Assembly (NCBI GenBank): GCA_026982835.1
Contig: JALSGI010000891.1
Span: forward strand, 1-39,086
DNA: 39,086 bases
Direction of reading: 5' to 3'
From: Planctomycetota bacterium
GTDB taxonomy: Bacteria; Planctomycetota; Planctomycetia; Pirellulales; S012-138
Shown: positions 18,623 through 35,357 of the stretch, in pieces
How positions within the stretch are numbered: position 1 is the first letter of the stretch
How the letters are laid out: every line of letters begins with the position of its first letter
Notes under the pieces: generated by a model
The model's database searches: none
The model's input: the letters and a program-made list of their open reading frames with translations, nothing else
What the model was told of the DNA's origin: nothing
Program-made: the position numbers and the translations under genes

Positions 18623-18642
18623 CGGCGGTGCTTCCGCACCGA

Positions 18643-19096: not shown

Positions 19097-19124
19097 TATA
19101 TTTTTGCATTGGAGTGGCAGCTGC

Positions 19125-19195
19125 GGCGAGCCCCGGGCTTTAGCCCGGGGAGAGCCGAATAAGCGATTTTGGTTATTTTCCTCCGCCAGCTAAAA
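19125..19195. repeat. Third copy of the composite element, right arm truncated
   Basis: Identical left arm and an A/T-rich spacer. The right arm TTCCTCCGCCAGCTAAAA breaks off and joins the GTACGTGTTTAGCGTGCCAGCA module, which is also found at 4801-4822. Confidence 0.7.
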
Positions 19196-19550: not shown

Positions 19551-22500
19551 TCAATAGCGAATGCGGGGAAAGGAGTTGCCCTGCTGCCACGGGGGAGCCA
19601 CCGGGGACGGAGCGGGGGGACGGGGCCCCGGCAGCCGCTCCAGGCCGACCTGAATCTGTTGCAGCGTGTCGCCCACCAGCGGGAACGGTTCGGAGCGGAT
19701 GCGGGGATTGTCCAGTGGGCCATCCACGTACAGCCGCAGAATCTGCCGGGAGGTGGCTCCCACCAGGTCGCCCACCAGCGGGATGCGGCGATCACTGCGC
19801 CCCACCTCGGCCCGGAAGACCAGCCGTACCTGCTTCTCCAGGTTCATCTCCCCGGCTCCCACCAACGAAATGGCGTCCCCGGCAAAGTCGATGCGGTCCA
19901 GGTAGATGTGGCTCCCCTGGAGGCGGAAGCGGATGTCGCTGGTGGTAAAGGCGGTGGTGCTGGGCAGTTGGAGCTGGAGCACCTTGAGCATGGCCACCAG
20001 CAGGGGGAGTTGATACACGTCGGCCTGGCGCAGTTGAATGTGCCCACGCCCCACCAGCGAGGGGATTCCCTGGTCGGTCCCCCGCAGCTCCAAGTGCCCG
20101 CGACACTTGCCTGATAGGTGTTGCTTGCCGCGGAAGGCTTCGCGGGCCAGGCGTTGCAGCAGCACGTCCTGGGCCTGCACGCGGAGGGCGAACTGCCCCT
20201 GGGAGCCCCAGGTGGCCCAGCCGTCCCCCCACAAGGTGCCTCCGTAGAAGCGGGCCGAAAGATGCGGCTGTTTTCCCGGTTGGATGGCGGCGGCCCGCGG
20301 GGCGCCCAACAGCACACGGTCGTTGGACAGCTCCAGCGGCCCCCGCACCTGGGTGAATTGCCAGCCCCGATAGACCAGGTTTTGCAAGTCCAACTGCCCT
20401 CGGCAGAAGAGGCGGCGCCCGTCCCAGTGCCCCCGAAGCCTCACCGTGCCGTGAAGGTCCTCCAGCAGCACGCCCACGTGCAGGTCCATCTGTTGCAGGA
20501 ACAGCTCCACGTCCCAGGCGCTTTGCCAGGGCGTGGGCTGGTCGGGGCGGAACTGCAGGGTCCAGCTGCCGCGGGCGATAAAGGGGCGATCCGGACGCAG
20601 CTTCAGCACCACCTGCTGCAGTTTCGGGGGCAAGGCGTCGCGCAGGTGGCGATCCAGCAGAACCGGCTCGGCCACGAACTGCTCGAATCGCAACTGCCAG
20701 CCTTCCGGGGGAAGCAGTTCGGCGGTGCCTTGGGCCTGAAAGCGGCTTTCGCCGTGCCGGGCCCGAAGCTGGTGCAACTGCACCCGCCCGTTGTGATAGA
20801 CGATCCGGCCTTGCAGGGCTTCCAGGCGGTAAGGGAACGAGGTCGGCTGGAGCGAAACGCTGCTGCCCACCGGCTCCAGCTCCACCCGCAGGTCGAGTTT
20901 CTTTTCCGGCGAGTGGAAGCGGACCTGGGCCGTGGCATCCACAAGCCCGTGCGGCCGAAGCTGGTTCCAAACCCGTTGTACCTTGGGCGGGAGGGCGGCT
21001 CGCAGTTCCTCGTCCAGCGGCAGGGCCAGTGCTGTCAGCTTCAGATCCAACACGGAGGACTGATCCGGGGCAAGGGTCAGCTTTCCCCCGCCGCTGATGC
21101 GGCAGCGGCCATGCGAGCCTTGCAGGTGGTGGAACGTCCAGTTGCGACCCTCCAGTTGCAGCGTGCCGCGGATGTTCTCCACGCGGAAGGGGAACTTGTC
21201 GAAGCGGATCGAGCACTCCTGCAGCCCCACCACCGCCCGGCGGTGTAGCGGTTGGCCTGGCCCGGGTCGCCAGAAGCGGGCTTGCAACCAGATCGTGCCC
21301 CGGGGCCGAAGCTGCCGCAGCACTTGCTGTCCCTTGGCGGGCATGGCGGCGATCAGCTGCCGGTCCACCGGGATGCTGCTGCCCTGCACTTTCACCCAGC
21401 CCACAAACGCCGGGCCGGGGTCCTCCACGTCGGCCGTGATCCGCAGCGGTTCCCCTCCGGCCAATCCTTGCAGCTCCAGTTGGAGGTGCTTCCCCCGCAG
21501 GGTGATCGTGCCCGTGGCTTGCTCCACCGGGTAGGGGAGCCGGTGATAGACGAACCGCATCCCCAGGCAGTGCACGTCGGCCTGCTGTAGCTGCCACTGG
21601 TCTTGGGCCCGGGAAACCGTCGCCTGGAGATTCACCGTTCCCTGGGGGCGAAACCGCGGCCACAGCTCGGCCAGAGGACCGGGCAAGTTCTGCAACAACT
21701 GCCGGTCCACGGGCAGGTTTTCCGCTTCCAGCGTCAGTTGGAGTGGCGCCTCGGGCCGCAGCCCCTCAAGCACCGCCTCCAACTTCAACCGCGTGTTGCG
21801 ACTGCGGGCCTGCACTCCTTGCAGCCGCAGCTCCTGGTGCGTGCACGTAAAGCGGCCGGAGATTTCCCGCAACGGGAAGGGCAACCGCGGGTGATCCAGC
21901 GTGCCGCGGGAGAAGCTCCCCTGCAGGTGGAATTGCAGCCCCTGGCGGCGGCGGGGGTGATAGTCGGCCTGTACTTGCGCCTCCACCCGCAATCGCATCG
22001 GCGGCACTTCGCCCAAGGCCTGCCGCAGCGGTTGCGGGAGCGAAGCGAGTAGCTCGGAACTGATCTCCAACCGCTGAATCTTGGCCCGCAACGACCAACT
22101 CCGCTGCTGCGGCACCACGGCCACGGCAAACTGCACCTGCCGCAACTGCTCCCCGGTGGCACTTCCGGCCAGGGTGAACTGCACGGGGCCTTGCTCGGGG
22201 ACTTCGCGGGCGAACCGGCCCTGAAAGTTCCACACCCGCAGCACGGCCGGGTCCGGGGCGCGGGGGTCCACCAGCTCCAGGCGGCCATCTTCGATCCGGC
22301 CGCGGATCGTCCGCTGTTTCTTGGAGAAGCGGGGCAGGGGCCAGAGCCGCTGGGGGGACCAGGAGCCGTCGGGCAGGCGCAGGGCGCGGAGCCGCGGCCT
22401 GCGCAGCACCACCTCCTCCACGACCACTTCCCCTTGCAGCAGTTGCTGCAGGTTCAACCTGGCCCGCAGCTCCAGCTCTTCGATGGCAAGCAGCAAAAGC

Positions 22501-22733
22501 GGCCCCTGCTGCCGCGGCAAGGAGAACTTCAACTCCGAGACGACCAGCCGCTGCTGATCCAGTTCAACCCCACCGACTTCCACCAGCAGGTCCGGGTAGG
22601 CTTGTTGCAGCCGCTGTTGCACCCAGGCCCGCAGCTGGCGATCCGCCACCAGGTGCCACAGCACCAGGGCCGCCATCGCAGCGAAGAGCCCCAGGGCCAG
22701 CAACCACTTCAGCAGCCGCCACCATGTGCGCAT
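19551..22733 (-). CDS. AsmA/TamB-like large envelope protein: N-terminal TM anchor, five ~118-aa internal repeats, AsmA-like C-terminus
   Basis: N-terminal helix WWRLLKWLLALGLFAAMAALVLW. Repeats each begin around (P)(V/L)D..L...LP......L.LRP.G and contain (F/L)P(Y/F).(L/V)E...G.(I/L). The C-terminus IPLVGDLVG...LRLYVDGPLDNPRI resembles AsmA/TamB C-terminal segments. The track start 22787 is a GTG; ATG 22733 is an alternative. The family call is inference from architecture. Confidence 0.6.
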   Translation of the reverse strand: MRTWWRLLKWLLALGLFAAMAALVLWHLVADRQLRAWVQQRLQQAYPDLLVEVGGVELDQQRLVVSELKFSLPRQQGPLLLLAIEELELRARLNLQQLLQGEVVVEEVVLRRPRLRALRLPDGSWSPQRLWPLPRFSKKQRTIRGRIEDGRLELVDPRAPDPAVLRVWNFQGRFAREVPEQGPVQFTLAGSATGEQLRQVQFAVAVVPQQRSWSLRAKIQRLEISSELLASLPQPLRQALGEVPPMRLRVEAQVQADYHPRRRQGLQFHLQGSFSRGTLDHPRLPFPLREISGRFTCTHQELRLQGVQARSRNTRLKLEAVLEGLRPEAPLQLTLEAENLPVDRQLLQNLPGPLAELWPRFRPQGTVNLQATVSRAQDQWQLQQADVHCLGMRFVYHRLPYPVEQATGTITLRGKHLQLELQGLAGGEPLRITADVEDPGPAFVGWVKVQGSSIPVDRQLIAAMPAKGQQVLRQLRPRGTIWLQARFWRPGPGQPLHRRAVVGLQECSIRFDKFPFRVENIRGTLQLEGRNWTFHHLQGSHGRCRISGGGKLTLAPDQSSVLDLKLTALALPLDEELRAALPPKVQRVWNQLRPHGLVDATAQVRFHSPEKKLDLRVELEPVGSSVSLQPTSFPYRLEALQGRIVYHNGRVQLHQLRARHGESRFQAQGTAELLPPEGWQLRFEQFVAEPVLLDRHLRDALPPKLQQVVLKLRPDRPFIARGSWTLQFRPDQPTPWQSAWDVELFLQQMDLHVGVLLEDLHGTVRLRGHWDGRRLFCRGQLDLQNLVYRGWQFTQVRGPLELSNDRVLLGAPRAAAIQPGKQPHLSARFYGGTLWGDGWATWGSQGQFALRVQAQDVLLQRLAREAFRGKQHLSGKCRGHLELRGTDQGIPSLVGRGHIQLRQADVYQLPLLVAMLKVLQLQLPSTTAFTTSDIRFRLQGSHIYLDRIDFAGDAISLVGAGEMNLEKQVRLVFRAEVGRSDRRIPLVGDLVGATSRQILRLYVDGPLDNPRIRSEPFPLVGDTLQQIQVGLERLPGPRPPAPSPVAPPWQQGNSFPRIRY

Positions 22734-22915
22734 CCGTGCGAGGTTCCGTGCGAAAGAGGGGGGTTCCGGGGCATGCACTGCTTGCACTCCCCGGGCGTGC
22801 AGCCGGACCGGCAGCCACTGGCCGATCAGGCCGGGTTGCGGGCAGATGTTAGGAGAATCGCCCCGGGGGGGTCAAGACAAGCCCCGGCGACCGGAATCCA
22901 AGCCCTCCTGGGCGT

Positions 22916-24331
22916 TTACTTGCCGGAGCGGGATCTGGCCCGCTGCACCGACTCGGCAACCAGTTCCACGGGGCGGGCGTCCAGGTAGCGGGCCACCAGG
23001 GTGAGCGTGTCGCGGAAGAGGCGTTCGGTGCGGGCTTGCAGCCAGCGGTCGGTGGCGTCCAGCGACTGGCGGTGGCGATTGATGCGGGCCTCGAACTGCT
23101 CCCGGCCGGGAAGCCGCAACAGCTCTTCCAGCAGGGATTGGGCCGTGTCCACGTCTCCTTCGGCCAGCCGCTTTTCGATGCGGCGAATGAGAATCTGCCG
23201 CTGGATCACCACGTCGATCACCTCTTGCTGCAACGCGATCAGAAACGACTCGGTGGCCAGGCGCTGGTCGTCATTGTACACGGGGGCTTCGATCCGGGCC
23301 TCCAGTCCCGGCACGAAGGGGATGCGGGCCAGCACCTGGTAGCCGCTGCGCACAAGCAGCAGTCGCAACCGGTCTCCCGACGGTAACTCCAACTGGCCCA
23401 GGTGGTCGGTCCAACCCAGCGAGACGGTCTTCGGATCGTCCGGCCCGTAAACCAGCACTTCGTATCCTTCCAGGGGGATGCGGGCTCGGTCGTTGCTGAC
23501 CACTTGCAGCACCGTGCGTCGGGGCTGGGGGCGGACCAGCATGGCCACCATGCGGGTGCGGCCGCGGCGGCGGCGAGACAGGGGGGAACGCAAGCCGCTG
23601 AACACCTGGCAGTGAGCCAGGGGGCCTTCCCGCCGCTGGATGCGCAGAAAAGTCCAGGCAATGGCTCGAATCCGCCGCGGGTTCCCCTGGCGATCGTCGT
23701 AGCGGATCACCGGCAACAGCAGGGCACCCGGACGCAGGGGATCGGCCAGGCTGTCCCGCCAGGGGCGGGTACCGGCCCGCAACTGCACCAGGGCCGTTTT
23801 CCCCCTGGCCGTGTCGATGCGGGCCAGGGGCCGAAAGCAGCGTACCAGCAAGTGGCAGGCGGCCCGGGGCAGCAGCCGCAGGGAGCCGCATGCGGCCTTG
23901 CGCACCGGCCCCCAGCGACGCGAAAACACGTCCACCTCCCGGCACCAGAGCTGATAGCCCCCGGCCTGCCAGGAAAGCCCCAGCAGGAAAACCTTGTCCT
24001 GCTGGTCCCAGACCCCCGGCAGCTGCTCCCAGGGGAGTTCCTGTTCCGGAGCCAGCCGGGCCAGGGGGCCGGCGGCGGGGACCACCTCCAGTTGCCAGGC
24101 GGCTCCCATCACCAGATCCACCTGCTGCAACAGCCCTTGGCGGAGTTGCTCTTCGGCGGGCCAGGGCTGCTGGGGCTTCCACGGCACGATCAGCTCGCAG
24201 CGGACGCGGTAAGGGTCTCCTTCCCAGGAAACCGCCGACTGGGCCAGCAGTTCCTGCCACCCTCCGCCGCCCCCCGCCAAGAGCACGGCGGCGGCCAAAG
24301 CCCGAAACGCCACAGGGAATTCTCGACTCAT
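22916..24331 (-). CDS. Hypothetical secreted protein (471 aa), no recognised family
   Basis: ATG 24331 overlaps the upstream stop (ATGA at 24328-24331). Signal peptide FRALAAAVLLAGGGGG. A possible carboxypeptidase-regulatory-like beta segment (VLQVVSNDRARIPLEGYEVLVYG) and a helical C-terminus. Confidence 0.55.
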   Translation of the reverse strand: MSREFPVAFRALAAAVLLAGGGGGWQELLAQSAVSWEGDPYRVRCELIVPWKPQQPWPAEEQLRQGLLQQVDLVMGAAWQLEVVPAAGPLARLAPEQELPWEQLPGVWDQQDKVFLLGLSWQAGGYQLWCREVDVFSRRWGPVRKAACGSLRLLPRAACHLLVRCFRPLARIDTARGKTALVQLRAGTRPWRDSLADPLRPGALLLPVIRYDDRQGNPRRIRAIAWTFLRIQRREGPLAHCQVFSGLRSPLSRRRRGRTRMVAMLVRPQPRRTVLQVVSNDRARIPLEGYEVLVYGPDDPKTVSLGWTDHLGQLELPSGDRLRLLLVRSGYQVLARIPFVPGLEARIEAPVYNDDQRLATESFLIALQQEVIDVVIQRQILIRRIEKRLAEGDVDTAQSLLEELLRLPGREQFEARINRHRQSLDATDRWLQARTERLFRDTLTLVARYLDARPVELVAESVQRARSRSGK

Positions 24332-26718
24332 GGCAGCTGTGCCGTTTGTTGGAGTTTGATTTGCGTCGGGGGGACCCAGCGTTCCACGTGTTGATACAGC
24401 GTCACCAGGTCTTCTCCCACCCCTTGCACCTCTTCCCGCACCGCCGCGTATTCGCTCAACTGCCACAGCGGCAGCAAGGTCACGTCCTGGTGAAGCAGCC
24501 GGTGCAGCTCACGCAACCGCTGGCCCAGACTCCGCCAGTCCGAAGAACGGCTCATCCGGCGGATCGCCAGCCGGATATGAGCCGGAGTGTCGCGGACCAG
24601 TCCCTGATAGCCGAACAGCCGGTACACGTCCACCACCGGCTCCTGGATCACCAGCTCCACGTACCGCAGGTCGTAATCGCTGACCGGTTCCTGGGGGTCC
24701 ACTTCCCGCAGCGTGACTTTCATACCCAGCCGCTCCCAGTAGGCCTTGATCCGGCGGCAGGCGATCCGGGCAATCTCGCTGGGCGGGTGGACCAGCACCA
24801 GCTCCGGGGGGGGAGGCGGGGGAGGGCCTTCGGTCTGGTCATCTTCGCTGGAGTCCTCGCTGTTGGCCGGGGCCGCTGCGGCGGCGGAGCCTCCTTGGTC
24901 CGGCTTGGCCTTCTGGCGAAGCTGCAAGCTGCGTTGGGCCAGGGCGATCAGCACCAGCCCCAACTGGGGGTTGAACGCCCGCGGGGCGATGGCCCCATCG
25001 TAGGCGTAGCCGATCGGATCGCCCGAGCTGCGTGGAGCCGGCAGCGGCCCGCTGAGCACCCGTGACCCGTCCAGCTCGGTTCCCTGGTGCAGGTATTCCA
25101 GGATGGCCTGACGGTTCAGGGCATAGAGCAGTCCGCGGCGAAAGATGCGTTGCCGTAGCAGGGGTTTGTCGGGGTTGAACATCAGGCAGTGGACCGTGGG
25201 CCAGGCGTAGCGTCGCAGCCGCACGCCGGACTGCTCCACCGAGCTTTTCAACCACGGCGGCACGCGGTCCCAAAGGTCCACCTCCCCGTAGTGCAACGCA
25301 CTCAGGGCGTCCTGGGAGCGGGGATAGTGGTACTCGACGATCTCGCGCGGCTGGTTGCGTCCCGTGGCGAAATACTGCGGCACGGCCACAAAGTGCACCC
25401 GACCCTCCCGTTGCCGCTGGCGGCGATAAGGGCCGTTGGGGGGCGGGGCCAGGGGAGGGTAAAGTTGGTCCCAGCCGTACAGCGGCTGGTTGAGCAAGGC
25501 CAGAGGGTGCAACGGGGGGCGGCGAAAGACGACCTCGACGGTGCGGGCGTCGGCGGCGTGGATTCTTTCCACCGCCACCGCCCAGGAAGGTTGATAGAAC
25601 GGGTGGCGCGAGTCGGCCATGGCCGAGAGCGTGGCTGCCACGTCGGCCGCCACCAGGGGACGCCCGCCTTGGCTCCATTTCAGCCCCGGCTTCAATTCCA
25701 GCCGCAGCCGGGCTCCCAGGTCGGCCATCTCCACCGTGCCCCAGGGGCAAACGTACTCTCCCCCCGAGGGACCCGGCCCGGCCAACTCCACCAGACGGCG
25801 ATAGTGCAACCGCCCCACCCGCAACGCGGCCCAATCGTCCAGCCGCGGCATGGTGGATTGGGCCAGGCGGTTCACCGCCACCCGCACCAGGGGGACCCGC
25901 CGCTGGGCCTGCTGCAGTAGCTGGAGGGCCTCGGGCACGGGCCAGATGCGAGCGGCCCGTTGGGCCAGCTCCCGGGCGGCGAACAGCTCTTGCCGGTCCC
26001 AGCGGGCTTGGGCCTGCTGGACCAGTTTGCGGGCTTCCGTTTCCAGGGACTTGCGCACCTGCTGGGCGGCCGGATGCTGCGGATAGCGCCGCAGCAGCTC
26101 TTGCAACAACTGGCGCACCGAGTCGTAGTCTTTCCGGGCCAGATACTGCTGGGCCTTGGCCACCACCAGCCGGCCCAACGCTTCCCGCAGCCCCGGGTAC
26201 TTGCCGTTTTGCTCTTGCAAGTGCAACAGCAACACCAGGGCACGATCCGCCTGGCCCTGCTGGAGGCGGTGCTGGGCCTCGTACCACAAGAAGCGCTGGA
26301 AGGCGGCCGCGTAGCCTTTGAGCTTGGGATAGAACCGCCGGATGTGGATCAGGTAGTCGTAGGCTTCCTCGAACCGTTTCTGGTCCACCAGCTGGTTGAC
26401 TCGATCCAGCAGCAACTGCGGAAAACGCCGAATCTGCTTGATCTCCCGCCACCGCACGCGGTACTTCTCCCCCGGGCGATCCAGCAACTCGACGGTGATC
26501 CGCGTGGTGCTGCGGGGATTCTGAGGCAGGTTTTTCAAAGGCTTGACCCGCAGCGTGGTCCCGTCCACCAGGGTGATCTCGTCGAAGGGGTCCTGCTCGT
26601 ACAAGCGTCCCTGCTGGGCCCAAGCCAGGCCGCCGTATCCTGCCCCCAGCACCAACAGCCAGAGGGTGCATCGGGCCAGGGCAAACCCGCTTGTCCGGCA
26701 GTGCCATCGGGGGGCCAT
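24328..26718 (-). CDS. TPR-like N-terminal domain fused to an ABC-type family-5 solute-binding-protein-like domain
   Basis: Signal/TM segment LWLLVLGAGYGGLAWAQQ. TPR-like helices (FEEAYDYLIHIRRFYP..., ARKDYDSVRQLLQELLRRYPQHP). An SBP_bac_5-like core (LRLELKPGLKWSQGGRPLVAADVAATL..., HFVAVPQYF, LRRYAWPTVHCLMFNPDKPLL...RRGLLYALNR). An acidic/Pro-rich insert (SEDSSEDDQTEGPPPPPPP). Confidence 0.7.
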   Translation of the reverse strand: MAPRWHCRTSGFALARCTLWLLVLGAGYGGLAWAQQGRLYEQDPFDEITLVDGTTLRVKPLKNLPQNPRSTTRITVELLDRPGEKYRVRWREIKQIRRFPQLLLDRVNQLVDQKRFEEAYDYLIHIRRFYPKLKGYAAAFQRFLWYEAQHRLQQGQADRALVLLLHLQEQNGKYPGLREALGRLVVAKAQQYLARKDYDSVRQLLQELLRRYPQHPAAQQVRKSLETEARKLVQQAQARWDRQELFAARELAQRAARIWPVPEALQLLQQAQRRVPLVRVAVNRLAQSTMPRLDDWAALRVGRLHYRRLVELAGPGPSGGEYVCPWGTVEMADLGARLRLELKPGLKWSQGGRPLVAADVAATLSAMADSRHPFYQPSWAVAVERIHAADARTVEVVFRRPPLHPLALLNQPLYGWDQLYPPLAPPPNGPYRRQRQREGRVHFVAVPQYFATGRNQPREIVEYHYPRSQDALSALHYGEVDLWDRVPPWLKSSVEQSGVRLRRYAWPTVHCLMFNPDKPLLRQRIFRRGLLYALNRQAILEYLHQGTELDGSRVLSGPLPAPRSSGDPIGYAYDGAIAPRAFNPQLGLVLIALAQRSLQLRQKAKPDQGGSAAAAAPANSEDSSEDDQTEGPPPPPPPELVLVHPPSEIARIACRRIKAYWERLGMKVTLREVDPQEPVSDYDLRYVELVIQEPVVDVYRLFGYQGLVRDTPAHIRLAIRRMSRSSDWRSLGQRLRELHRLLHQDVTLLPLWQLSEYAAVREEVQGVGEDLVTLYQHVERWVPPTQIKLQQTAQLP

Positions 26719-26731
26719 GTGTCGTTCTCGC

Positions 26732-29700
26732 CTATCGTCGGGAAGTTCGGGTCGCTGGGGCTTCCGCTTTTTCGGTTTTACGGGGCTCCAGCATGTGGAA
26801 AGCCCCGCCGGGAGTGGGGATCAGCAGGCGGTTGTCCTTCAGCAGCAAGGGGGAGCCGGCCAGGGCTTCCGCAGTGCGGTAAGTGTGGCGCAGCGCACCG
26901 GTGTCCAGCTCCAGCTGTAGCACCTTGCCGGAGGCGATCGCCAGCAGACACTCCCGCCGGTTCAGTCGCACCGGCTCTCCCACGGGGAGCTGTCCGGAGA
27001 GTTCCCGTTGCCAAAGCAGTCGCTCCTGGCTCAGGCAAAGGAGTTTGCCATCCCGGGTCAGGCACAGCACCCGGTCCGCACCGCAAAACACCGGCCCCCA
27101 GACGGGGCGCCCCGGGTCGGGGGCAGCCTGGTTTTTTTTCTTCTCCGGGGCCTTTTGCACCGCAAGCTTCAGCTCCGGCAGCGAGACGCGAACCAGGCGG
27201 CCTTGGGCGTCCCAGAGCCAGGCGGCGCGGTGGAACAGCACCACCGGGCCGTGCAAGGGGCCGGGAGCCTTGGCTTGGCGAAGGGGAAGGAGGGCTTCGT
27301 TGGGACCGGGCAGCTTGTCGAACAGCAGCAGCCGTCCGTCCCCGGCGGCCAGCAGGAGCGATCTTCCGTCCGTGGCTCCCACTTCCAGCCAAGGAGGCGG
27401 ATGCCCCGGCACCGTGGGAGGAAAATACGGCGAACCGACCATGCGGCCCTGGACCGCGTCCATTACGAACAGCGGGCCGGAACGGCTGGCCAGCAGCAGC
27501 TTCCCCTGCCAGGGCACGGGAGGGATGAGCAGGGCCTGGGGAAGCTCGTGCCAGAGCAGCTTCCACGGGGGGGACTGCCCTCGCCGCAGGATCGGCAGCC
27601 GCCGGGCGCCTCCCGGCACGCGCCCGGCCCAAACCCCCAAACCCAGCGGCAGCCACACCCGCGGCAAGGCCCCGGCCAGCTGCCGGCCATTTTCCGGCGA
27701 CCAGACAGGTGAGACCACCACGGTCCCCTCGCTTGAAGGCCAGCGAGGCTGATACACGTTGCCCCGAGGGTCCACCACACCGGGCAAGCCTGCTGGATCC
27801 TGGCCTCCTCGCAGCGGGGTCCAGCTCATGGGCATGGCGAAGCGGGTGGTCCATATCTCCAGACCGCTGGTGGCATGGAAGGCAGCCACGCGCACCGTCC
27901 CGTCCTCCTCCTGGGCCACGGCGAACAGTGCCTCGCCCAACTTGTGCAAGGGGAGAGGGAACGAGACATTTTCCAGCAACACGCGGTCGGGATTCATTTG
28001 TCCTTGGGCCGCCTGGATGCGATAGCGAGTCAGCCGGCGGTCGGCCACCCAGGCGCGGGTCCCCTCCAGCAGAATCTGCACCGGTCCCGGCTCCTCGTAC
28101 ACCGCCGCCCGCGAGGCGACCGAGCTGAGCGGTTCCTTTTTCTTCTGGGGTTGCGGGTTGACTTCAAACAGCACGATCTGGCCCAGGTCCGTGGCCACGG
28201 CCAGCATCCGTCCGCGAAGCACCGGGGGCCGGAACACCTGTCCCTGAAGTCGCACGCTTTGCACCAGCTGCATGGTGTGTTTCTTGGCATCGAAGCGAAG
28301 CACCCGCAGCCGCGAAGAGCGCTGGCCGGTGTTCTCGGCCAGGATGACAAACGGCCCGGCCACGATCCCCGGGGTCACGATCGTATTCTGCTCGTGGCCC
28401 AGGTAATACGCCCCCACGCACTGCCGCTTCTCCAGGTCCAGTACATAGACGTTGGAATGGCCTGCCGGAAGGAACATCAGCGAGCCGGCCAGCGCCGCAG
28501 GGGCCGACAGCGCCTGGGGAAACTCGTACCGCCCCAGCACCTGCCCGTCCTCGGCCTGAATCTCCCACAGCTGATCGGCCAGGGGGACGTAGAGTCTTCC
28601 TTGGGCCAGCACCAGGTCGGCCACCGGCTCTTGGGGCAGCGGCAGGTGCCACCGCAGCGAGCCGTCTTTTCCCTGCAACCGCCACAGTTGCCGGTGTTGG
28701 GGGCTCCAGGCCACCACGTCCGGCGGCGCCTGGTCGGAGAGGACCACCGGCGAAAGCCACAGGTCCTTGCCCAGGTACTGCCGCCAGCGCAGCTTGCCGT
28801 CCTCGGCCGAAACGGCCCACAACGCCCCCGCGGCGGTTACAAATAACAGGTGATTTTTTGCTTCCGGGATGGTCTTTCCCTGGGTGTGAGCCACGGGGAG
28901 GGTGCGGGAGCCGAGTTTTGGGGCCGGGGCCGCCGCTGGCTTATCCACCGGCTGGTAGCGGATGGCGCGGCGTTCGGCGCCGGTGGCTTGGGCGATGGCC
29001 TCCTGGAGTTGGGGATTGGTTTCCAGCTCGGGATATTCTTTGAGCAGCTGGCGGCGGATCTGATAGGCTTGCTGGGTTTGCTTCTGATCGATGGCCAGGC
29101 GGATCTGCTGCAGGGCCTCGCTAAGCCGCCGGTTGCGGCCCAGCATCCGCTCGATCTGCAAGAAGCGCCCTTCCAGCGTGGCCAACCGGGTGCGATTGCG
29201 AAGCTTGTCCGGCACGTAGTTGGGATTGAGGATCATCTGGTACACCCGGCGTGCTTTTTCCAGCAGTTGGGGGCTTTGCTGGCTTTCGGCCATGTCGGTC
29301 AGCCCTTCGGCCACGCGGGGGAGCATTGCGGCCAGCTCGGGGCGCGCCTCGGGGAATTCCTTCTCCTTGCGTATTTCCTTGACGGCCTGCTCAATGATCT
29401 GAAGGGTTTTCTCCCAGTCCGAGCCCTGGTCCACCGCCCGACGCATGATGGCCAGGCCCCGCAGCACGCGCACGTGGCCTGCCCGCGTGTGGTCGGGAAA
29501 ATAGTCCAGGAACCGCTCGAACTTCTCGATGGCCAGGGTGTAGGAGCCGTTGTTGTAGTCCTCTTCGGCCGACTGCAGGAGCTGGTCGGCCGATTCCCGG
29601 CCAATGGCCCAATAAAGACCTGCGGCGATTACCACCAGCAGGATCAACCCCCCTCCGCCCAGCAGGAACAGGGGGGATTCCCAGACGCTTCGCCGGACTC

Positions 29701-30148
29701 GGGCCGCTCCCCAGGCCGGGGCGGGCACTCCCGGCGCGGCGGCCGCTGGGCCTAGCTCGGCCGGCCCGGCCGCATCCAGAGCCTCCAGATCATCCAGCAG
29801 GGCCGGGCCCCCGCCCGATGCAGGAGCCGCAGGAGGCGACGGAAACGCCGATTCGGCTCTGCCGGGGGCGGGGTTGGCCTCGGGAAGGGAAGAGGGGGGC
29901 GTGTGCCCTTTGGCCGCAGGAGGCGTTTTCGGCCGGGGTTCTTCGGCGGTTTCCACCGCCTTGAGTAGTTCCTGGGCCTGGAAGCGGGTCAGGTGGCCGT
30001 GATCCACCAGCCACCCGGCCACGGAACGGGCCGAAGGAGGGGGTTGCCGGCTACGGAGCTGTTTCCGCAGGTGGCGCACCAGCTTCTCCGGCACCGTGCC
30101 GCGTTGCTGCAGCAGGTTCAGGAAAGTTTCCCACTGGGGAGTGCTCAT
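26732..30148 (-). CDS. Large bitopic protein: cytoplasmic N-terminal domain, Pro-rich linker, one TM helix, TPR-like region, PQQ/BamB-like beta-propeller repeats
   Basis: TM segment SPLFLLGGGGLILLVVIAAGLYWAIG. TPR-like YNNGSYTLAIEKFERFLDYFPDH. More than ten repeats of the type LWAVSAEDGKLRWR, LWRLQGKDGSLRWH, LWEIQAEDGQVLGRY, LLCLSQERLLWQREL and VLQLELDTGALRHTY, characteristic of PQQ-like propellers. Confidence 0.7.
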   Translation of the reverse strand: MSTPQWETFLNLLQQRGTVPEKLVRHLRKQLRSRQPPPSARSVAGWLVDHGHLTRFQAQELLKAVETAEEPRPKTPPAAKGHTPPSSLPEANPAPGRAESAFPSPPAAPASGGGPALLDDLEALDAAGPAELGPAAAAPGVPAPAWGAARVRRSVWESPLFLLGGGGLILLVVIAAGLYWAIGRESADQLLQSAEEDYNNGSYTLAIEKFERFLDYFPDHTRAGHVRVLRGLAIMRRAVDQGSDWEKTLQIIEQAVKEIRKEKEFPEARPELAAMLPRVAEGLTDMAESQQSPQLLEKARRVYQMILNPNYVPDKLRNRTRLATLEGRFLQIERMLGRNRRLSEALQQIRLAIDQKQTQQAYQIRRQLLKEYPELETNPQLQEAIAQATGAERRAIRYQPVDKPAAAPAPKLGSRTLPVAHTQGKTIPEAKNHLLFVTAAGALWAVSAEDGKLRWRQYLGKDLWLSPVVLSDQAPPDVVAWSPQHRQLWRLQGKDGSLRWHLPLPQEPVADLVLAQGRLYVPLADQLWEIQAEDGQVLGRYEFPQALSAPAALAGSLMFLPAGHSNVYVLDLEKRQCVGAYYLGHEQNTIVTPGIVAGPFVILAENTGQRSSRLRVLRFDAKKHTMQLVQSVRLQGQVFRPPVLRGRMLAVATDLGQIVLFEVNPQPQKKKEPLSSVASRAAVYEEPGPVQILLEGTRAWVADRRLTRYRIQAAQGQMNPDRVLLENVSFPLPLHKLGEALFAVAQEEDGTVRVAAFHATSGLEIWTTRFAMPMSWTPLRGGQDPAGLPGVVDPRGNVYQPRWPSSEGTVVVSPVWSPENGRQLAGALPRVWLPLGLGVWAGRVPGGARRLPILRRGQSPPWKLLWHELPQALLIPPVPWQGKLLLASRSGPLFVMDAVQGRMVGSPYFPPTVPGHPPPWLEVGATDGRSLLLAAGDGRLLLFDKLPGPNEALLPLRQAKAPGPLHGPVVLFHRAAWLWDAQGRLVRVSLPELKLAVQKAPEKKKNQAAPDPGRPVWGPVFCGADRVLCLTRDGKLLCLSQERLLWQRELSGQLPVGEPVRLNRRECLLAIASGKVLQLELDTGALRHTYRTAEALAGSPLLLKDNRLLIPTPGGAFHMLEPRKTEKAEAPATRTSRR

Positions 30149-30195
30149 GGATCGTCTCGCATCCGAGGCGGATAAGGGGACGGCCGGGGGCCGGG

Positions 30196-30849
30196 TCAGA
30201 ACTCCTCTTCGTCGGGGGCCTTGCGAATGTCCTCAAAGCCGGCGGCCCGGGCCGCGTCGAACACCATCACCACCGTATCATGCCGGGCTTTCTCGTGGAA
30301 AGTGACCAGCACCCGGCTGGGACCCCCGCCGCCGCTGCGCCGCTGCCGCAGCAGCGAGAGCAGCTCCTGGCGGGTGGGGGCCTCGTGGTCTTCCACCCAC
30401 ACCACACTCGTTTCGTCCACGCGGATGATGATGTAATCGTCGTCCTCTTCCAGCTCTTCCAGGCTGCGGCTTTGGGCCGCCTGTTGGGTCGGGTCCGGCG
30501 AGGGCGTCTCCAGGGCCTTCTGCTTGGCGAAGGAAGCCGTGAGCATGAAAAAGATCAGCAGCAAGAAGGTCACGTCCACCATGGGGGTCATGTCCATCTC
30601 CTCCTCGCGGCGGCGGCCAGAGGTGGAGAAGCGAACCGGCGGCAGCGTTTCCTCTTTTTTTTGCGGCTCCTCCCGCAAAGAGTCGGCCTGGTCCAGCAAC
30701 TGGCCCTCGCTGGGCATGTCGATCTGGTTCTGCCAGCGGGGAATGATGCCGATCCGCCCGCAGCCGGTGCACTGGAACCGCTTGCCCACCTGCTGCGGAT
30801 CGGCCTTGAGTTTCTTCCCACACTGGGGACATCGAAAGCGAACGGCCAT
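30196..30849 (-). CDS. ExbD/TolR family protein with N-terminal CxxC...CxxC zinc-ribbon extension
   Basis: The N-terminus RFRCPQCGKKLKADPQQVGKRFQCTGCG has four Cys in zinc-ribbon spacing. The ExbD core DMTPMVDVTFLLLIFFMLTASF follows, with a periplasmic alpha/beta domain. Confidence 0.8.
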   Translation of the reverse strand: MAVRFRCPQCGKKLKADPQQVGKRFQCTGCGRIGIIPRWQNQIDMPSEGQLLDQADSLREEPQKKEETLPPVRFSTSGRRREEEMDMTPMVDVTFLLLIFFMLTASFAKQKALETPSPDPTQQAAQSRSLEELEEDDDYIIIRVDETSVVWVEDHEAPTRQELLSLLRQRRSGGGGPSRVLVTFHEKARHDTVVMVFDAARAAGFEDIRKAPDEEEF

Positions 30850-30883
30850 CGCCTTACGTCCTGGAAGTTGGTTTGCGGGGAAA

Positions 30884-31378
30884 TCAATCCTCGTTCATCA
30901 CGGCGATGTGCAGCGTGCTGTAACCGGCCTCCCCGGCCAGTTGCTCGATGCGATTGACGTCTCCTTCGCTCACTGCGCCTTCGGCCTTGATCAACACGGT
31001 GGTCTTTTTTCCATCAACCAGCTGTTGTTCCAGGTACTCCAGCACCTGCTGCCGCACCTCCCGCCAGGGACCGCTGACCCGGTTCTCTTCCAGCTTGCCG
31101 TTGCCCAGATAGACGGCCGCCAACTCCCCCGGCTGGTGGCCCAGGGTGATGATGGCCGCCGTGTCCGGGTCCACTCCGTCGCCGAAGCGGGCCTTGGGGA
31201 GCCGGATGGCCCGCTGCGGGTCCATGGCCGAAGCCACCAGGAAAAAGATCAACAGCAGGAAGGTAATGTCGATCATGGGGGTGATGTCCATTTCGGTGGT
31301 TTCTTCCATGGAGCGACGGGGTAGCAGGGGTCCGTCCAGCTCCACGTCTTCCGGCAAGGGAGCGTTTGCGGGTGCCAT
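30884..31378 (-). CDS. ExbD/TolR family biopolymer transport protein
   Basis: ATG 31378 with GAGGA 8 nt upstream. EMDITPMIDITFLLLIFFLVAS motif and a periplasmic domain ending VLIKAEG......V..I... Confidence 0.85.
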   Translation of the reverse strand: MAPANAPLPEDVELDGPLLPRRSMEETTEMDITPMIDITFLLLIFFLVASAMDPQRAIRLPKARFGDGVDPDTAAIITLGHQPGELAAVYLGNGKLEENRVSGPWREVRQQVLEYLEQQLVDGKKTTVLIKAEGAVSEGDVNRIEQLAGEAGYSTLHIAVMNED

Positions 31379-31465
31379 GGTGCGATTCCTCGTATGCTCT
31401 TGCATCACGGCGGGGAGTGGACCGCCAGGAAAAAGGCCAGGGCCACCCAGCCGGGAAAAAGCCTC

Positions 31466-32167
31466 TTACCGCCCTTGGGGTAATACGGCCCGCAGGCTGT
31501 CCAGGAACCGGGTCAGGCCCAAAGCCACCAGGTCTTCCATTTTGCGAATGCGGACGTTGATACTGGCCAGCGACAACACCAGCGGAATGGCGATGGCCAG
31601 TCCCAGGGCCGTGGTGATCAGGGCGATGCTGATGTCGTCGGCCAGGTCCTTGGGGTCCGGCTGCTGGGTGGCCAGTTTGCCGAAGGCCCCCATCATGCCC
31701 ATCACCGTCCCCAGCAGCCCCACCATGGGGGCCGCCTTGATCACCGTCTGCACCCAGCTGAGGCGGTATTCCAGGTCGGAGAGCACGTCGCGCTGGAACC
31801 GTTCGGCCACGAAGTGTCGCAGCTGGGCCGGGCCCATGGCCCGATTGAGAATGGCCAGCCGGGCCAACTGGGGCATGGCTCGCGGGTCCTCCTCGCACAG
31901 CCGAGCTGCCCCCTCGAAGTCCCCCTGGCTGAGCAGTTGTTCCACCTGGGAGAGGAACTCCGATTGGGCATTTTCGTCCCGGAATCGCAATGTTCCCACC
32001 CGGCGCCACACCATGGTGACGCAAAACAGCCCCCACAACGCGATCAAAGCCAGAACCACGTAGATGATGTTCCCGATGACATTGGTCAGCTGAGTGATGT
32101 CGATCATGGTTGCTGTCGCTCCATAAGATGCGATCCGATGGAAAAAAAGGAATATCCCGACAAACAT
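31466..32167 (-). CDS. MotA/TolQ/ExbB family proton channel protein
   Basis: C-terminal signature APMVGLLGTVMGMMGAFG...ISIALITTALGLAIAIPL. ATG at 32167 overlaps the upstream TGA by 1 nt (TGATG). ATG 32107 is an alternative start. Confidence 0.85.
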   Translation of the reverse strand: MFVGIFLFFHRIASYGATATMIDITQLTNVIGNIIYVVLALIALWGLFCVTMVWRRVGTLRFRDENAQSEFLSQVEQLLSQGDFEGAARLCEEDPRAMPQLARLAILNRAMGPAQLRHFVAERFQRDVLSDLEYRLSWVQTVIKAAPMVGLLGTVMGMMGAFGKLATQQPDPKDLADDISIALITTALGLAIAIPLVLSLASINVRIRKMEDLVALGLTRFLDSLRAVLPQGR

Positions 32168-33066
32168 CAGATCCCTAACAACTCCTGGTCCACGACCACG
32201 AACCGGTAGCCGGAGCCGCTTCGCTGGACCTTGAAGTAGGTGCGGCGAATTTGCTTGGGCTGATGCCCCCGGAAAGCCACTTCAAGTTGGGCCAGCTGCG
32301 CTTCGACCTCCGGGGGATAGAACTGGAGGATGATCTTCCCCTGGGGATTGATCCCCGCTTTGCGCAGCAGCTGCAGGTCGAACTTTTTCAGGGAACCTTC
32401 GGTCCAGGACATGTAGAGCCGGTTCTCTTGGGCGTTGCGTCCGGCGGTGCGGCGTCGGGGGCGCGCCTGCGACAACGCCGAGGCGTATTCCACCCCGTTC
32501 TCCCCTACGGCGGCCAGCTCGATTTTGAAGAAGTCCAACTGCCGGGCGTACTCTTCCAGCGAGCTGGCCTCGTAGTGAATGATCCATCGCTTGTACCGGG
32601 GCACCCCGCCGACCGAGCCGCCTCCTTCGCCCAGGGCGGGATTGTCGCCGGTCCCTTCGCTTTTGCCCGCCTTCCCCGATTCCGGATCATCGCTTAGCTG
32701 GGGATCGTCCAGTTCGGCCAGGTGGGCGGCCACCACGGTTTCCACCAGGGCCAGGGTTTGCTCGATCTGAGGTTCTTCCAGCTCGGCTTCCCGGGAGATT
32801 TCCTCCGCGTCCGGGGCGTCCAGTTGCAGGCTGTCCCCCAGCACGCCTTCCGGGCTACCGCCCAGGTTCTCCGCCTGAATGGGGACGGCCACCAGCGGGG
32901 GCGAAAGCCGGTTGGTGAGCCAGATCACAAACAAGCAAAACACCGTCACTCCCACGAAGATCAACAACGCCACCAGCCAACTGGCAACCCGGTCGTAAAG
33001 GGAAACGTGCAACGGGGGGGCATCGTTGACCGAAGGGGATCGCGGATTGGAGGAGGAAGCAGACAT
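32167..33066 (-). CDS. Hypothetical bitopic membrane protein in the TonB/TolA gene position: N-terminal TM, acidic linker, ~130-aa C-terminal domain
   Basis: ATG 33066 preceded by GAGGAA. TM segment WLVALLIFVGVTVFCLFVIWL and an acidic linker (DAPDAEEISREAELEEPQIEQ). The C-terminal domain RWIIHYEASSLEEYARQLDFFKIELAAV... has no TonB-C motif that I can recognise. Confidence 0.6.
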   Translation of the reverse strand: MSASSSNPRSPSVNDAPPLHVSLYDRVASWLVALLIFVGVTVFCLFVIWLTNRLSPPLVAVPIQAENLGGSPEGVLGDSLQLDAPDAEEISREAELEEPQIEQTLALVETVVAAHLAELDDPQLSDDPESGKAGKSEGTGDNPALGEGGGSVGGVPRYKRWIIHYEASSLEEYARQLDFFKIELAAVGENGVEYASALSQARPRRRTAGRNAQENRLYMSWTEGSLKKFDLQLLRKAGINPQGKIILQFYPPEVEAQLAQLEVAFRGHQPKQIRRTYFKVQRSGSGYRFVVVDQELLGI

Positions 33067-33119
33067 GGATTCCTCATCTGAAGTTGCAAGCGGAAGCAAC
33101 ATCGCCGGGGCCGCCGCGT

Positions 33120-34766
33120 TTACGGACTGCCCTGGGGGAGCAATTCCCGGGCGGCATCCGGGCGGGCCGTCCGGTACCAGCGGGTCCATCGCAAGATGGC
33201 CTGACGACGCTGCTTGGGACTGGGGCGATCCGGTAACCCGAATCCTTCCATCCGGCGACTCAACCGCCGCAAGGCGTCGCGGGCGGCACGCATCACCCGC
33301 AAGTCCGGGTCTTCCAGCAGCCGGATCAACAGGGGTACCACGTCCATTTTACCCGAGGCGGCCAGGGCCTTCACCGCGGCGATCTTTGCCTCGGGGGAAC
33401 CGTCCTGGGCCAGTTGGCGCAGCTGGCGGTCCAGCCGGGAGAGCATCTGCGGATCCGGGTCCTCTCCCAGCTCCTCCAACGCGGCCAAGGCCTGCTGGTA
33501 CTTCGGATGATTCGGATCGCCGATGATCCCTAGCAACTGGTCCGCCGGACCCCGCAAGGGCTTGACCCGAAGCTGGCCGCCGCGCAACTCCAGCGGGCCG
33601 CCCAAGCGGGGAAGCCCCCGTCCGCCGACCAGCTTGCCGCTGGCCGGTTGCACATCCTGGAGCATCTTGCGGGTGGCCCGAACCAGGAACAAAACGGCAA
33701 AGGCCGTGGGGGCTGGGTCGGGGCTGACCGTGGCATCGTTTTTGCCCCAGCTTCCATCCCCCCGTTGACGTGCCAGTAGATATTCCAAGCCCAAGTTGTA
33801 CCATTGTTCGCTCGTGGACCCTTCCGGATCGACCAGTTCCCGAAAACTGTGGTAACGCTCCAACGAATAAAGGAAGTAAAACACGTACTCGTGCTCTGCT
33901 TTTTCAAAGGAAAAATTGGCTTCCAGCCATTGTTCGGCCCTTTGGGCGGCTTGGGACAACTGGGCCACGGGAAGGGAAACGGAACGCATTTTGTGCACTC
34001 CCCCGCCCGCTTCCACCTTTTCCAACGCCGGCGGCAAACCCGTTTCTTGTTCCCGACGCCCTCCCAACTTGGCACGGGCCTGGCAGATATACAGAGCACT
34101 CAAGGCCGCAGCGGTGGTGCCGACTCGAGGACCCCTTGCTGGTTGGGCCGGCTCGTACACGTATCCGCCTGAGGAGTGCTGGGTACGCACCAGCCACGTG
34201 GCCAGGTTTTGCCACGCCCCGGCCGACGTCCCCACGCCGGACTGATCCATGGCCCACAAAGCCAACGCCCCGTACTGGGTCATCGAGGTATCCCCTCCGA
34301 CTTGCTTGGGGCCGCGTGACTGGCCGAACAAACAGCTGAATCCCCCATGAGCCATCTGAAATCTCATGATGTTCGAGCGAAGAAGGCGAATCTCCTCGGC
34401 CGAACCATCCGGATTGATCTCCGACAAAGCCGTCAGCGCAATGGCTATGGAGTAAGGGGCTGAGTATTCCCTGGCCAGTTGTGGGCGGTGGATATCCTGT
34501 CGGATAGCGGCCAGGGTGTTTCGAACGATCGGGTCCGTGGGTTGCACGGCTTCCGCCTTGTAAAGGGCCAGAATGGCCAAGCTGGTCAGCCCCAGACGCC
34601 GGGAAGTAGAGGCCTCATTGCGAGCACGACGGAGACCCGTGGTTTTCAGATAATTGCAGGCCCGCTGAACGGATTGACGCACTTTCGGTGGCAATGGTTC
34701 GGCGGCTTGCGATCCGGTGGCCAGAGAAAAAAGCACCAACCACACAAGCTCTCGATACGGTTTCAT
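33120..34766 (-). CDS. Secreted prenyltransferase/squalene-oxidase-like (alpha/alpha-toroid) repeat protein with C-terminal HEAT-like repeats
   Basis: ATG 34766 followed by a signal peptide. Repeated motifs QMAHGGFS, RTQHSSGGYVY and ARQRGDGSWG. The C-terminus SPEAKIAAVKALAASGKMDVVPLLIRLLEDPDLRVMRAARDALRRL is HEAT/PBS-lyase-like. Confidence 0.6.
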   Translation of the reverse strand: MKPYRELVWLVLFSLATGSQAAEPLPPKVRQSVQRACNYLKTTGLRRARNEASTSRRLGLTSLAILALYKAEAVQPTDPIVRNTLAAIRQDIHRPQLAREYSAPYSIAIALTALSEINPDGSAEEIRLLRSNIMRFQMAHGGFSCLFGQSRGPKQVGGDTSMTQYGALALWAMDQSGVGTSAGAWQNLATWLVRTQHSSGGYVYEPAQPARGPRVGTTAAALSALYICQARAKLGGRREQETGLPPALEKVEAGGGVHKMRSVSLPVAQLSQAAQRAEQWLEANFSFEKAEHEYVFYFLYSLERYHSFRELVDPEGSTSEQWYNLGLEYLLARQRGDGSWGKNDATVSPDPAPTAFAVLFLVRATRKMLQDVQPASGKLVGGRGLPRLGGPLELRGGQLRVKPLRGPADQLLGIIGDPNHPKYQQALAALEELGEDPDPQMLSRLDRQLRQLAQDGSPEAKIAAVKALAASGKMDVVPLLIRLLEDPDLRVMRAARDALRRLSRRMEGFGLPDRPSPKQRRQAILRWTRWYRTARPDAARELLPQGSP

Positions 34767-35073
34767 TGCTCGGCCGGTCACGTGCTGGAGAAAGGAAAAG
34801 CCAACAAGCACCCGATTCCCACCCTTCCGGCAGGAACGCCCCGGCTACCGATCGGAACCAGGAAACGCACCCCTGGGCTCCCGGCCGATCGCTCTCTCTG
34901 TCCCGATCCGCTCCCGCGCCGTGGCTATGACGGGTGGAGGCAATCCGGCTTCACCCTGGAAAAGGATAAAAACGACAAGGCCACCGCGGGATTCCTCCTG
35001 CGGTTGTTTCGCCGGAAAGCCCCCAACTGCCAAACACGACCGGGATACGGAACAAGTCCTTCAGGCAACAAAA

Positions 35074-35103
35074 ATCTTACACTAAGGCAAAAAACACCGT
35101 CAA
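35074..35103 (-). promoter_or_regulatory. Sigma70-like promoter candidate for the nine-gene minus-strand operon
   Basis: On the minus strand: TTGACG (35103-35098), an 18-nt spacer, then TAAGAT (35079-35074), about 300 nt upstream of ATG 34766. It lies back-to-back with the plus-strand candidate. Confidence 0.3.
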
Positions 35104-35197
35104 GCAAACGCAAACCTCGCTGCTGCCCCCAGGAAACACCCCCGGCAGCCGAGACCGCCGATTCCGGCTCCTGTAGGGGACCGCGTGCGAAAAAAGA

Positions 35198-35226
35198 TTG
35201 ACCCCGGCCCCCGGTTCGGCTACAAA
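35198..35226 (+). promoter_or_regulatory. Sigma70-like promoter candidate for the DUF1549/1553-DUF1501-WD40 operon
   Basis: TTGACC (35198-35203), a 17-nt spacer, then TACAAA (35221-35226), about 130 nt upstream of ATG 35358. Planctomycete promoter consensus is poorly known. Confidence 0.3.
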
Positions 35227-35357
35227 CAAATCAAGAGGCGTTTATCCTTTTGCCGTGCCCCAACCGTGGCCGATACCAGTAACGATACGCTGCCCCGCCT
35301 TTGCTGATTCCCACCTGCCAACCTCCCCGCCTTTCCCGCCAAGAACAAGTAAGAAAG

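Follow-up and report, generated by a model that had tools for sequence, protein, structure and literature searches.

A conserved planctomycete gene cluster with an ExbB/ExbD-type motor and a candidate force transducer of a new family

Planctomycetes are bacteria that divide without FtsZ and remodel a periplasm of very large size. A concrete candidate, amenable to genetics, for the device that brings energy to their outer envelope lies on contig JALSGI010000891.1 of a Planctomycetota bacterium (assembly GCA_026982835.1; Pirellulales), of which we analysed a stretch of 39,086 nucleotides (nt), called the window below, with a high, planctomycete-like GC content of about 0.65. A preliminary description of this DNA had read nine minus-strand genes as one operon that couples an ExbB/ExbD/ExbD motor to giant periplasmic scaffolds and an AsmA/TamB-like protein, with none of the known motor partners. 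The nine open reading frames (ORFs) are indeed where it had placed them, and we number them 1 to 9 in the order in which they are read (Table 1). We propose that genes 1 to 8 probably encode an envelope machine driven by the proton motive force (PMF), a force-transducing device of the kind represented by Ton, Tol-Pal and Agl-Glt, with a new transducer encoded by gene 2. The cluster combines a motor whose two ExbD subunits are distinct, a member of a new and very large family of TonB/TolA-shaped candidate transducers for which Pfam has no model, and periplasmic partners that form a fixed set. Recent evidence has 5:2 proton motors driving many envelope systems besides Ton, Tol, flagella and gliding, and the cluster adds to it.

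What does the motor consist of? Genes 3, 4 and 5 had been called as ExbB, ExbD and a zinc-ribbon ExbD, and the domain searches bear this out (Table 1). Gene 3 scores 86.7 bits against PF01618, for which the cut-off is 22.9, and the two ExbD proteins both retain the proton-binding aspartate of the transmembrane (TM) helix. The second of them, here called ExbD', carries its CxxC...CxxC zinc ribbon at the N-terminus; this ribbon is present in 59 of the 67 ExbD' orthologues versus 1 of the 69 orthologues of the first ExbD, and the two paralogues stay distinct across loci. Among the NCBIfam models, the best match of gene 3 is TolQ (TIGR02796; 64.4 bits, cut-off 221), and the ExbDs reach 36.7 and 42.9 bits against TolR (TIGR02801; cut-off 127.3). 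A defence-system reading with a Zorya-like MotAB was also considered and ruled out, as PADLOC gave just a weak HEAT match.

Are these motor genes tied to their neighbours in other genomes? One genome per species was scanned with the alignment of gene 2, which yielded 483 loci. The best 80 of these were kept, all labelled Planctomycetota but one. All nine proteins were compared with the kept loci by tblastn, and a locus was counted as assessable only where enough DNA was present beside gene 2. ExbB lies beside gene 2 in 67 of 76 assessable loci, ExbD in 66 of 73 and ExbD' in 62 of 71, followed by gene 6 (56/65), gene 7 (41/49) and gene 8 (32/41), while gene 1 is found upstream of gene 2 in 49 of 74. 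In most assessable loci order and strand are constant across Pirellulales and Planctomycetales, down to 25-40% protein identity. For example, a relative with 79-89% protein identity (L003) has genes 1 to 8 and then unrelated genes; Botrimarina (L002) has genes 1 to 8 in order and then an oxidoreductase on the opposite strand; and Polystyrenella, a Schlesneria-like contig and a genome labelled Pirellulales have genes 2 to 8, with or without gene 1. A Thermoguttaceae contig (L006) shows the classical exbB-exbD-exbD-transducer order, namely gene 1, ExbB, ExbD, ExbD, gene 2, gene 6 split in two, gene 7 and gene 8, again with an oxidoreductase behind them. The claim of a dedicated, conserved cluster of motor and periplasmic scaffolds is borne out by this recurrence of genes 1 to 8.

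Gene 9 behaves differently. A counterpart next to the cluster was found by tblastn in 0 of 87 related loci, and gene 9 does not follow gene 8 in Botrimarina, in the Thermoguttaceae contig or in either of the two closest relatives, even at 79-89% protein identity. Gene 8 runs to 22916, where its stop codon ends, and collinearity of the window DNA with these two nearest relatives is lost at 22938, shortly before the 3' end of the gene. No other junction of the series is as wide as the one between genes 8 and 9, which holds a promoter-like site, a match to the consensus only; this hexamer pair (22846-22875) would fit a gene 9 that is transcribed as a unit of its own. On the other side, gene 9 abuts a cluster of REP-like repeats. 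Judged by gene order, the conserved unit is thus eight genes (genes 1 to 8, window 22916-34766) and not nine, and gene 9 is a lineage-specific local neighbour at a synteny breakpoint next to the repeat cluster.

The alternative is that all nine genes form one operon whose motor energises an AsmA/TamB-type protein of lipid transport or outer-membrane biogenesis. Gene 9 is on the same strand, begins 128-182 nt downstream of gene 8 with no opposite-strand gene between, and keeps its place in a second, independent assembly record with the same nine-gene order. It also resembles the AsmA-like clan (AsmA/TamB/YhdP/DUF748) in that it is long and beta-rich, has an N-terminal TM anchor and gives several clan matches, and the precomputed annotation of the source lists DUF748. 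These matches are all below the curated cut-offs (DUF748 32.3 bits, cut-off 50; YhdP 21.9, cut-off 46; GspN_Lepto 32.5, cut-off 50). Since the gene has no conserved tie to the motor cluster and sits beyond the break in collinearity, we regard a nine-gene operon as very improbable, and the coupling of the motor to AsmA-type lipid transport, which headed the preliminary description, falls with the exclusion of gene 9.

If the motor does not serve gene 9, what is its direct partner? Two loci narrow the choice. One of them (L039) consists of ExbB, ExbD, ExbD' and gene 2 only, followed by unrelated ORFs, with genes 6 to 8 not beside it, and by tblastn another (L050) has these four genes in the same order. 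The minimal module would thus seem to be the motor plus gene 2. Gene 2 also occupies the sites expected of a TonB, either before exbB or, as in L006, L039 and L050, after the second exbD, and together with the four-gene set of L039 this points to gene 2 as the direct partner of the motor.

The architecture of gene 2 fits such a role. The protein has a TM helix at about residues 27-50, a conserved motif at 60-70, an acidic and Gly-rich linker and a C-terminal domain at 157-299. In an AlphaFold2 model built on 57 aligned sequences (mean pLDDT 78), the TM helix spans 23-54, the linker is modelled at low confidence and the alpha/beta C-terminal domain at 157-299 exceeds a pLDDT of 90. The family is large, with 194 matches in a word-indexed search and 2049 clusters at 50% identity in a full HMMER search, and nearly all of the 150 members listed are about 300 residues long. 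None of the 57 aligned members has a Pfam match, and TonB_C, TonB_2 and TolA are found in 0 of 57 at E<=1. Foldseek returned no match of the model in PDB at E<0.001, and a profile search against PDB sequences gave noise, with nothing relevant. A fold of the von Willebrand factor A (vWA) type was likewise seen neither by Pfam in the 57 members nor among the Foldseek matches listed. Gene 2 thus has the three-part plan of TonB and TolA, at the position of TonB, with a domain of another family. That the cluster has none of the known motor partners holds in so far as a canonical TonB or TolA domain is lacking; it was overstated in so far as gene 2, a candidate transducer with TonB/TolA architecture, had been overlooked.

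The conserved residues of gene 2 were counted in 57 members. At the anchor, residue 25 is Asp or Glu in 57/57 members and S29 is kept in 49/57, and Ser or Thr is conserved at position 22. Beyond the helix, by 7-20 residues, lies a strand-like motif, A-V-P-V-x-L-x-E-V-G-G-G, with V61 in 44, P62 in 47, V63 in 42 (Ile in 9 more) and G70 in all 57 members. In E. coli TonB, the D-box (43-54) sits after the anchor, and ExbD dimers capture it by strand recruitment (PMC10907165). The motif of gene 2 is at the same position as the D-box and, by analogy, may play an equal role in ExbD binding. The invariant D/E25 prompts another reading, in which gene 2 supplies a third ExbD-like pore helix. This is less likely, because two ExbD paralogues already stand beside gene 2 in most loci and D/E25 is placed at the cytoplasmic boundary, adjoining a basic residue.

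The comparison with Ton can now be made as a whole. Both systems have ExbB (PF01618) and ExbD (PF02472) with the TM aspartate, and both encode beside the motor a protein with a single-pass anchor, a flexible linker and a globular C-terminal domain. They differ in that D/E25 replaces the SHLS/His motif of TonB, the linker is acidic and Gly-rich where that of TonB is Pro-rich, and the C-terminal domain, which Pfam does not assign to TonB_C, has no significant PDB match by Foldseek. Moreover, the planctomycete cluster has two ExbD paralogues, one with a zinc ribbon, and no TonB-dependent transporter. A divergent Ton-like uptake system, in which gene 2 would stand in for TonB and open an outer-membrane transporter whose gene lies elsewhere, perhaps as part of a macromolecule route through the crateriform structures, and in which the SBP_bac_5 domain of gene 7 would capture the imported oligosaccharide or peptide, could account for the TonB-like architecture and position of gene 2 and for the strong SBP_bac_5 match. 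Planctomycetes do take up macromolecules into the periplasm. As the preliminary description had stated, however, TonB-dependent receptors, Pal/OmpA domains, flagellar genes and ABC permeases are all missing from the nine proteins and from the flanking window ORFs scanned, and the gene-called related loci likewise contain no TonB-dependent receptor or ABC permease. The cytoplasmic kinase/FHA and zinc-ribbon modules described below are also atypical of Ton systems, and no TonB_C fold was found in gene 2. We therefore consider Ton-like uptake unlikely.

The closest published work, from 2025, concerns PVC bacteria, in which non-canonical force transducers of vWA type are encoded next to tolQ-tolR-tolR (PMC12204202); a description of the cluster of genes 1 to 8 itself was not found in the literature searched. 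Those transducers resemble gene 2 in that a disordered linker joins their TM helix to a globular C-terminal domain that is not TonB-like, and they too stand beside one tolQ-like and two tolR-like genes with tetratricopeptide repeat (TPR) partners in the PVC group. Gene 2 differs from them in having no vWA match in its C-terminal domain and no SHLS His, and the accompanying gene set is here genes 1, 6, 7 and 8. The gene 2 family is therefore of the same kind as the PVC non-canonical transducers and differs from them in fold, motif and gene set.

On what could gene 2 act? The domain calls made earlier for genes 1, 6 and 7 were reproduced (Table 1). Gene 1 carries a signal peptide, and its orthologues give faint matches to SQHop_cyclase_C and TED_complement. 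Genes 1, 7 and 8 all have ordinary signal peptides with no lipobox Cys, as assessed by eye. In gene 6, a small cytoplasmic N-terminal domain and its P/A-rich linker precede a TM helix (about 169-191), after which come a TPR region like that of BamD/CpoB and one or more beta-propellers of PQQ/BamB type. The TPRs of the cluster reach 24.9 and 19.3 bits against the CpoB/YbgF model TIGR02795 (cut-off 90.1), which is generic TPR similarity. Gene 8 has no Pfam match, and its profile search against PDB sequences gave noise. Its structural model, built from an alignment of 12 sequences, starts with an alpha/beta domain at the N-terminus, continues with two beta-sandwich domains and closes with a bundle of five helices at the C-terminus, and its best Foldseek matches in PDB are FlgT of the Vibrio flagellar basal body (3w1e, 2e-8) and TolB of A. 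baumannii (7mx5, 2.4e-6), both at probability 1.0, in an output that does not state which residues align. FlgT and TolB are periplasmic partners of 5:2 motor systems, and the N-terminal part of FlgT presumably resembles the N-domain of TolB. With these matches, the earlier intuition of a rearranged Tol-Pal gains some support. In the gene 8 homologue of the Thermoguttaceae contig (L006 17012-18541), the C-terminal third is a low-complexity Arg/Ala-rich stretch and not the conserved helical bundle, probably owing to an assembly frameshift.

The cytoplasmic end of gene 6 varies. In the window it is the small helical domain and P/A-rich linker, neither kinase nor FHA. Orthologues of about 1500 residues in five loci (L007, L010, L016, L018 and L030) have a Ser/Thr kinase (Pkinase) there, and those in four others (L001, L005, L028 and L059) have an FHA domain at the same N-terminal position. 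That a kinase and a reader of phospho-threonine replace each other at one position suggests a link between the complex and Ser/Thr phospho-signalling; more broadly, the cluster suggests that signalling by Ser/Thr kinases and FHA domains can be connected to 5:2 motors.

Cytoplasmic modules of this sort have a precedent in the Agl-Glt machinery of Myxococcus xanthus, where GltJ has a cytoplasmic zinc ribbon, GltG has FHA domains and the motor consists of one TolQ-like and two TolR-like subunits (PMC11761067). By analogy, the GltJ zinc ribbon and the GltG FHA domains are the nearest precedent for the cytoplasmic handles of the planctomycete cluster. They are placed on different components, since the zinc ribbon here is on ExbD' and in Glt on a TonB-like protein, and the FHA or kinase here is on the propeller protein. 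Could the cluster then be an Agl-Glt-like machine at the surface or cell pole, in which the motor moves or positions a trans-envelope complex that serves adhesion, the handling of holdfasts or fibres, or movement of the gliding type, controlled by Ser/Thr phospho-signalling in the cytoplasm? The subunit set corresponds to AglRQS, and the zinc-ribbon and FHA modules on inner-membrane components and the large periplasmic TPR proteins correspond to GltJ, GltG and GltD/E/C. No domains of GltA/B/H/K-type outer-membrane barrels or of a CglB-like adhesin were found in the cluster or the gene-called loci, however, and the cluster has no TonB-CTD-like domains. Most Pirellulales and Planctomycetales are not known to glide. 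An output of this kind is improbable, more so than Ton-like uptake.

The machine that we favour instead can be sketched from the parts. An ExbB pentamer would surround an ExbD/ExbD' heterodimer, and gene 2 would dock on this motor with its TM helix and the motif behind it. Pulled or rotated by the flow of protons, gene 2 could then, through its novel C-terminal domain, exert force on periplasmic partners. Candidate targets are the TolB-N/FlgT-like gene 8, the toroid-HEAT protein of gene 1 and the TPR, propeller and SBP5 scaffolds of genes 6 and 7. The zinc ribbon of ExbD' and the kinase or FHA of gene 6 orthologues may serve as cytoplasmic regulatory handles that gate the machine, as the GltJ zinc ribbon and the GltG FHA domains do in the gliding motor of myxobacteria. 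The motor parts with their retained aspartates, the tight linkage of gene 2 and the fixed order of genes 6, 7, 8 and often 1 argue for this scheme, and with them the idea of a distinct PMF-driven machine without canonical partners has held up.

Several observations weigh against it. About 10-20% of loci do not have one or more of the parts beside gene 2. Pairs of gene 1 and gene 2 without a motor in cis occur in four loci (L033, L036, L075 and L051 from Schlesneria sp. T3-172), where genes 6 to 8 are not beside them either; they suggest a direct relationship between gene 1 and gene 2, or a second paralogous pair served by a motor elsewhere. The gene 2 helix has no conserved SHLS/His of the kind used in TonB/TolA docking, with H20 in 5 of 57 members, and the matches to TolQ, TolR and CpoB fall well short of the equivalog cut-offs. 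For gene 8, the Foldseek matches come with TM-scores of 0.18-0.21 and high rmsd, and the top 50 include a single TolB entry. Finally, the cluster encodes neither an outer-membrane component nor a lipoprotein, and no domain of the kind that binds peptidoglycan (OmpA/Pal). The first two of these points, along with the occurrence of gene 2 next to gene 6 without ExbBD, could also be taken to mean that the genes are neighbours without a joint function, the periplasmic proteins working without a motor and gene 6, for instance, being a receptor kinase or sensor. A fixed order and strand in most assessable loci, across two orders and down to such low identity, is unlikely without functional coupling, and for this reason we give mere adjacency very little credence.

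Within the proposed machine, the output that we would tentatively place first is envelope maintenance or remodelling, a Tol-like coupling of the inner membrane, wall and outer membrane. Even granting the machine, this is somewhat short of an even chance. It is favoured because a largely reduced Tol-Pal has been reported for Planctomycetes (PMC8871954) and because the parts list echoes that system, with motor subunits that score best against the TolQ and TolR models, a BamD/CpoB-like TPR region, a periplasmic beta-propeller and a protein matching the TolB/FlgT fold in one cluster. The likeness has limits. The propeller, of PQQ/BamB type, is part of gene 6 and shares that protein with a TM anchor and TPR, the match to a TolB-like fold falls on gene 8 instead, Pal/OmpA-like domains and TolA domain III are absent from the cluster, and the SBP5, toroid-HEAT, kinase/FHA and zinc-ribbon modules are additional to Tol-Pal. 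Some family-5 binding proteins bind muropeptides, and by speculative analogy the SBP5 domain of gene 7 might do so as well. A bolder version, which we hold to be doubtful as a whole, is that the cluster substitutes for Tol-Pal in planctomycetes: the unrecognised transducer fold of gene 2 would pull on gene 8 and the scaffolds and so link the inner membrane, the wall and the outer membrane while the cell buds without FtsZ or remodels its periplasm, gated by Ser/Thr phospho-signalling and the zinc ribbon.

Table 1. Genes and regulatory features of the cluster and its edges (window coordinates; E values unless bits are given)
Feature	Position	Strand	Description	Evidence
Gene 1	33120..34766	-	Secreted, 548 aa; weak alpha/alpha-toroid signals and C-terminal HEAT repeats	HEAT_2 2.7e-9; SQHop_cyclase_C, Prenyltrans ~0.01
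Gene 2	32167..33066	-	Candidate force transducer, 299 aa	N-terminal TM helix, post-helix motif, linker, globular C-terminal domain
Gene 3	31466..32167	-	ExbB/TolQ-type stator subunit; probable true start M21 at ~32107, 213 aa	PF01618 (MotA_ExbB) 1.4e-24
Gene 4	30884..31408	-	First ExbD/TolR paralogue, TM Asp kept (MIDITF); probable start 31378	PF02472 6.6e-19
Gene 5	30196..30849	-	Second ExbD/TolR paralogue (ExbD'), cytoplasmic N-terminal zinc ribbon (CPQC...CTGC), TM Asp kept (MVDVTF)	PF02472 1.9e-22; weak Zn-ribbon matches
Gene 6	26732..30148	-	Bitopic, 1138 aa	PQQ_2 4.3e-17; YfiO 28 bits (cut-off 25)
Gene 7	24328..26718	-	Secreted, 796 aa; TPR and SBP_bac_5	SBP_bac_5 1.6e-28; TPR_14 5.1e-5
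Gene 8	22916..24331	-	Secreted, 471 aa	AlphaFold2 pLDDT 88.6, pTM 0.74; no Pfam match
Promoter-like hexamer pair	22846..22875	-	TTGACC-18-TAACAT, between genes 8 and 9	Consensus match only
Gene 9	19551..22733	-	AsmA-clan-like TM-anchored protein, 1060 aa; outside the conserved unit	DUF748 3.9e-8
Divergent upstream intergenic region	34767..35300	.	Probable promoter region of the cluster	GC 0.56-0.62

The junctions within the block were recomputed. Gaps of 53, 87, 34, 47 and 13 nt, the 4-nt ATGA overlap at 24328-24331 and the interval before gene 9 agree with the preliminary description; the 1-nt TGATG overlap between gene 2 and ExbB does not and comes from picking the longest ORF. In the source gene call, ExbB starts at M21 (near 32107), and the homologues begin at the equivalent residue. 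The longest ORF adds 20 N-terminal residues (MFVGIFLFFHRIASYGATAT; window 32107-32167) that have no counterpart in either, so the TGATG stop/start overlap is probably unused and the true gap would be 57 nt.

Both boundaries of the block are real. The upstream intergenic region is modestly AT-richer (against a GC of about 0.65-0.69 for comparison) and has a promoter-like site at 35103-35074 on the minus strand, a match to the consensus only. A riboswitch or other known RNA was ruled out by an Rfam scan, which found no family at gathering score anywhere in the window, this region included. At the other end, the REP-like cluster (18560-19550) next to gene 9 is about 1 kb of non-coding DNA with short palindromic units, on the downstream side of the synteny breakpoint at 22938. 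Its units include GGCGAGCC-hairpin-GGAGA (five copies) and GGTGCTTCCGCACCG (three copies), and it includes a perfect 18-nt inverted repeat (19028-19045/19079-19096).

Some related loci have peculiarities of their own. In L081 (10000-18745), gene 2 is directly followed by gene 6 with no detectable ExbB/ExbD between, and genes 7 and 8 follow; gene 2 is also directly followed by gene 6, with no detectable ExbB/ExbD between, in L082, which is labelled as a Deltaproteobacteria metagenome-assembled genome and is probably mis-binned. The opposite-strand oxidoreductase directly after gene 8 in two distant Pirellulales-type loci (L002 11467-12801 and L006 18714-20084) is of the GFO_IDH_MocA family and does not follow gene 8 in the window. 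In L006 (1-5870), genes for a secretin (Secretin_N) and pseudopilins (N_methyl, T2SSG) lie divergently just upstream of gene 1, an arrangement not seen in the other gene-called loci.

The flanks of the window carry PSCyt1/PSCyt2/PSD1 and DUF1501 genes, which belong to families that are hallmarks of planctomycetes. A PSCyt2+PSD1 gene and then a DUF1501 gene occupy 35301-38385, a similar pair being found upstream of the cluster in L007, and a separate gene for a PSCyt1+PSCyt2+PSD1 protein of 1093 residues lies at 10755-14036. Further away, an FG-GAP/ASPIC protein is encoded at 7226-9055, and a NeuB-family synthase with a SAF domain and a CTP_transf_3 cytidylyltransferase at 1575-3575 form an activation pair for a nonulosonic (sialic-like) acid.

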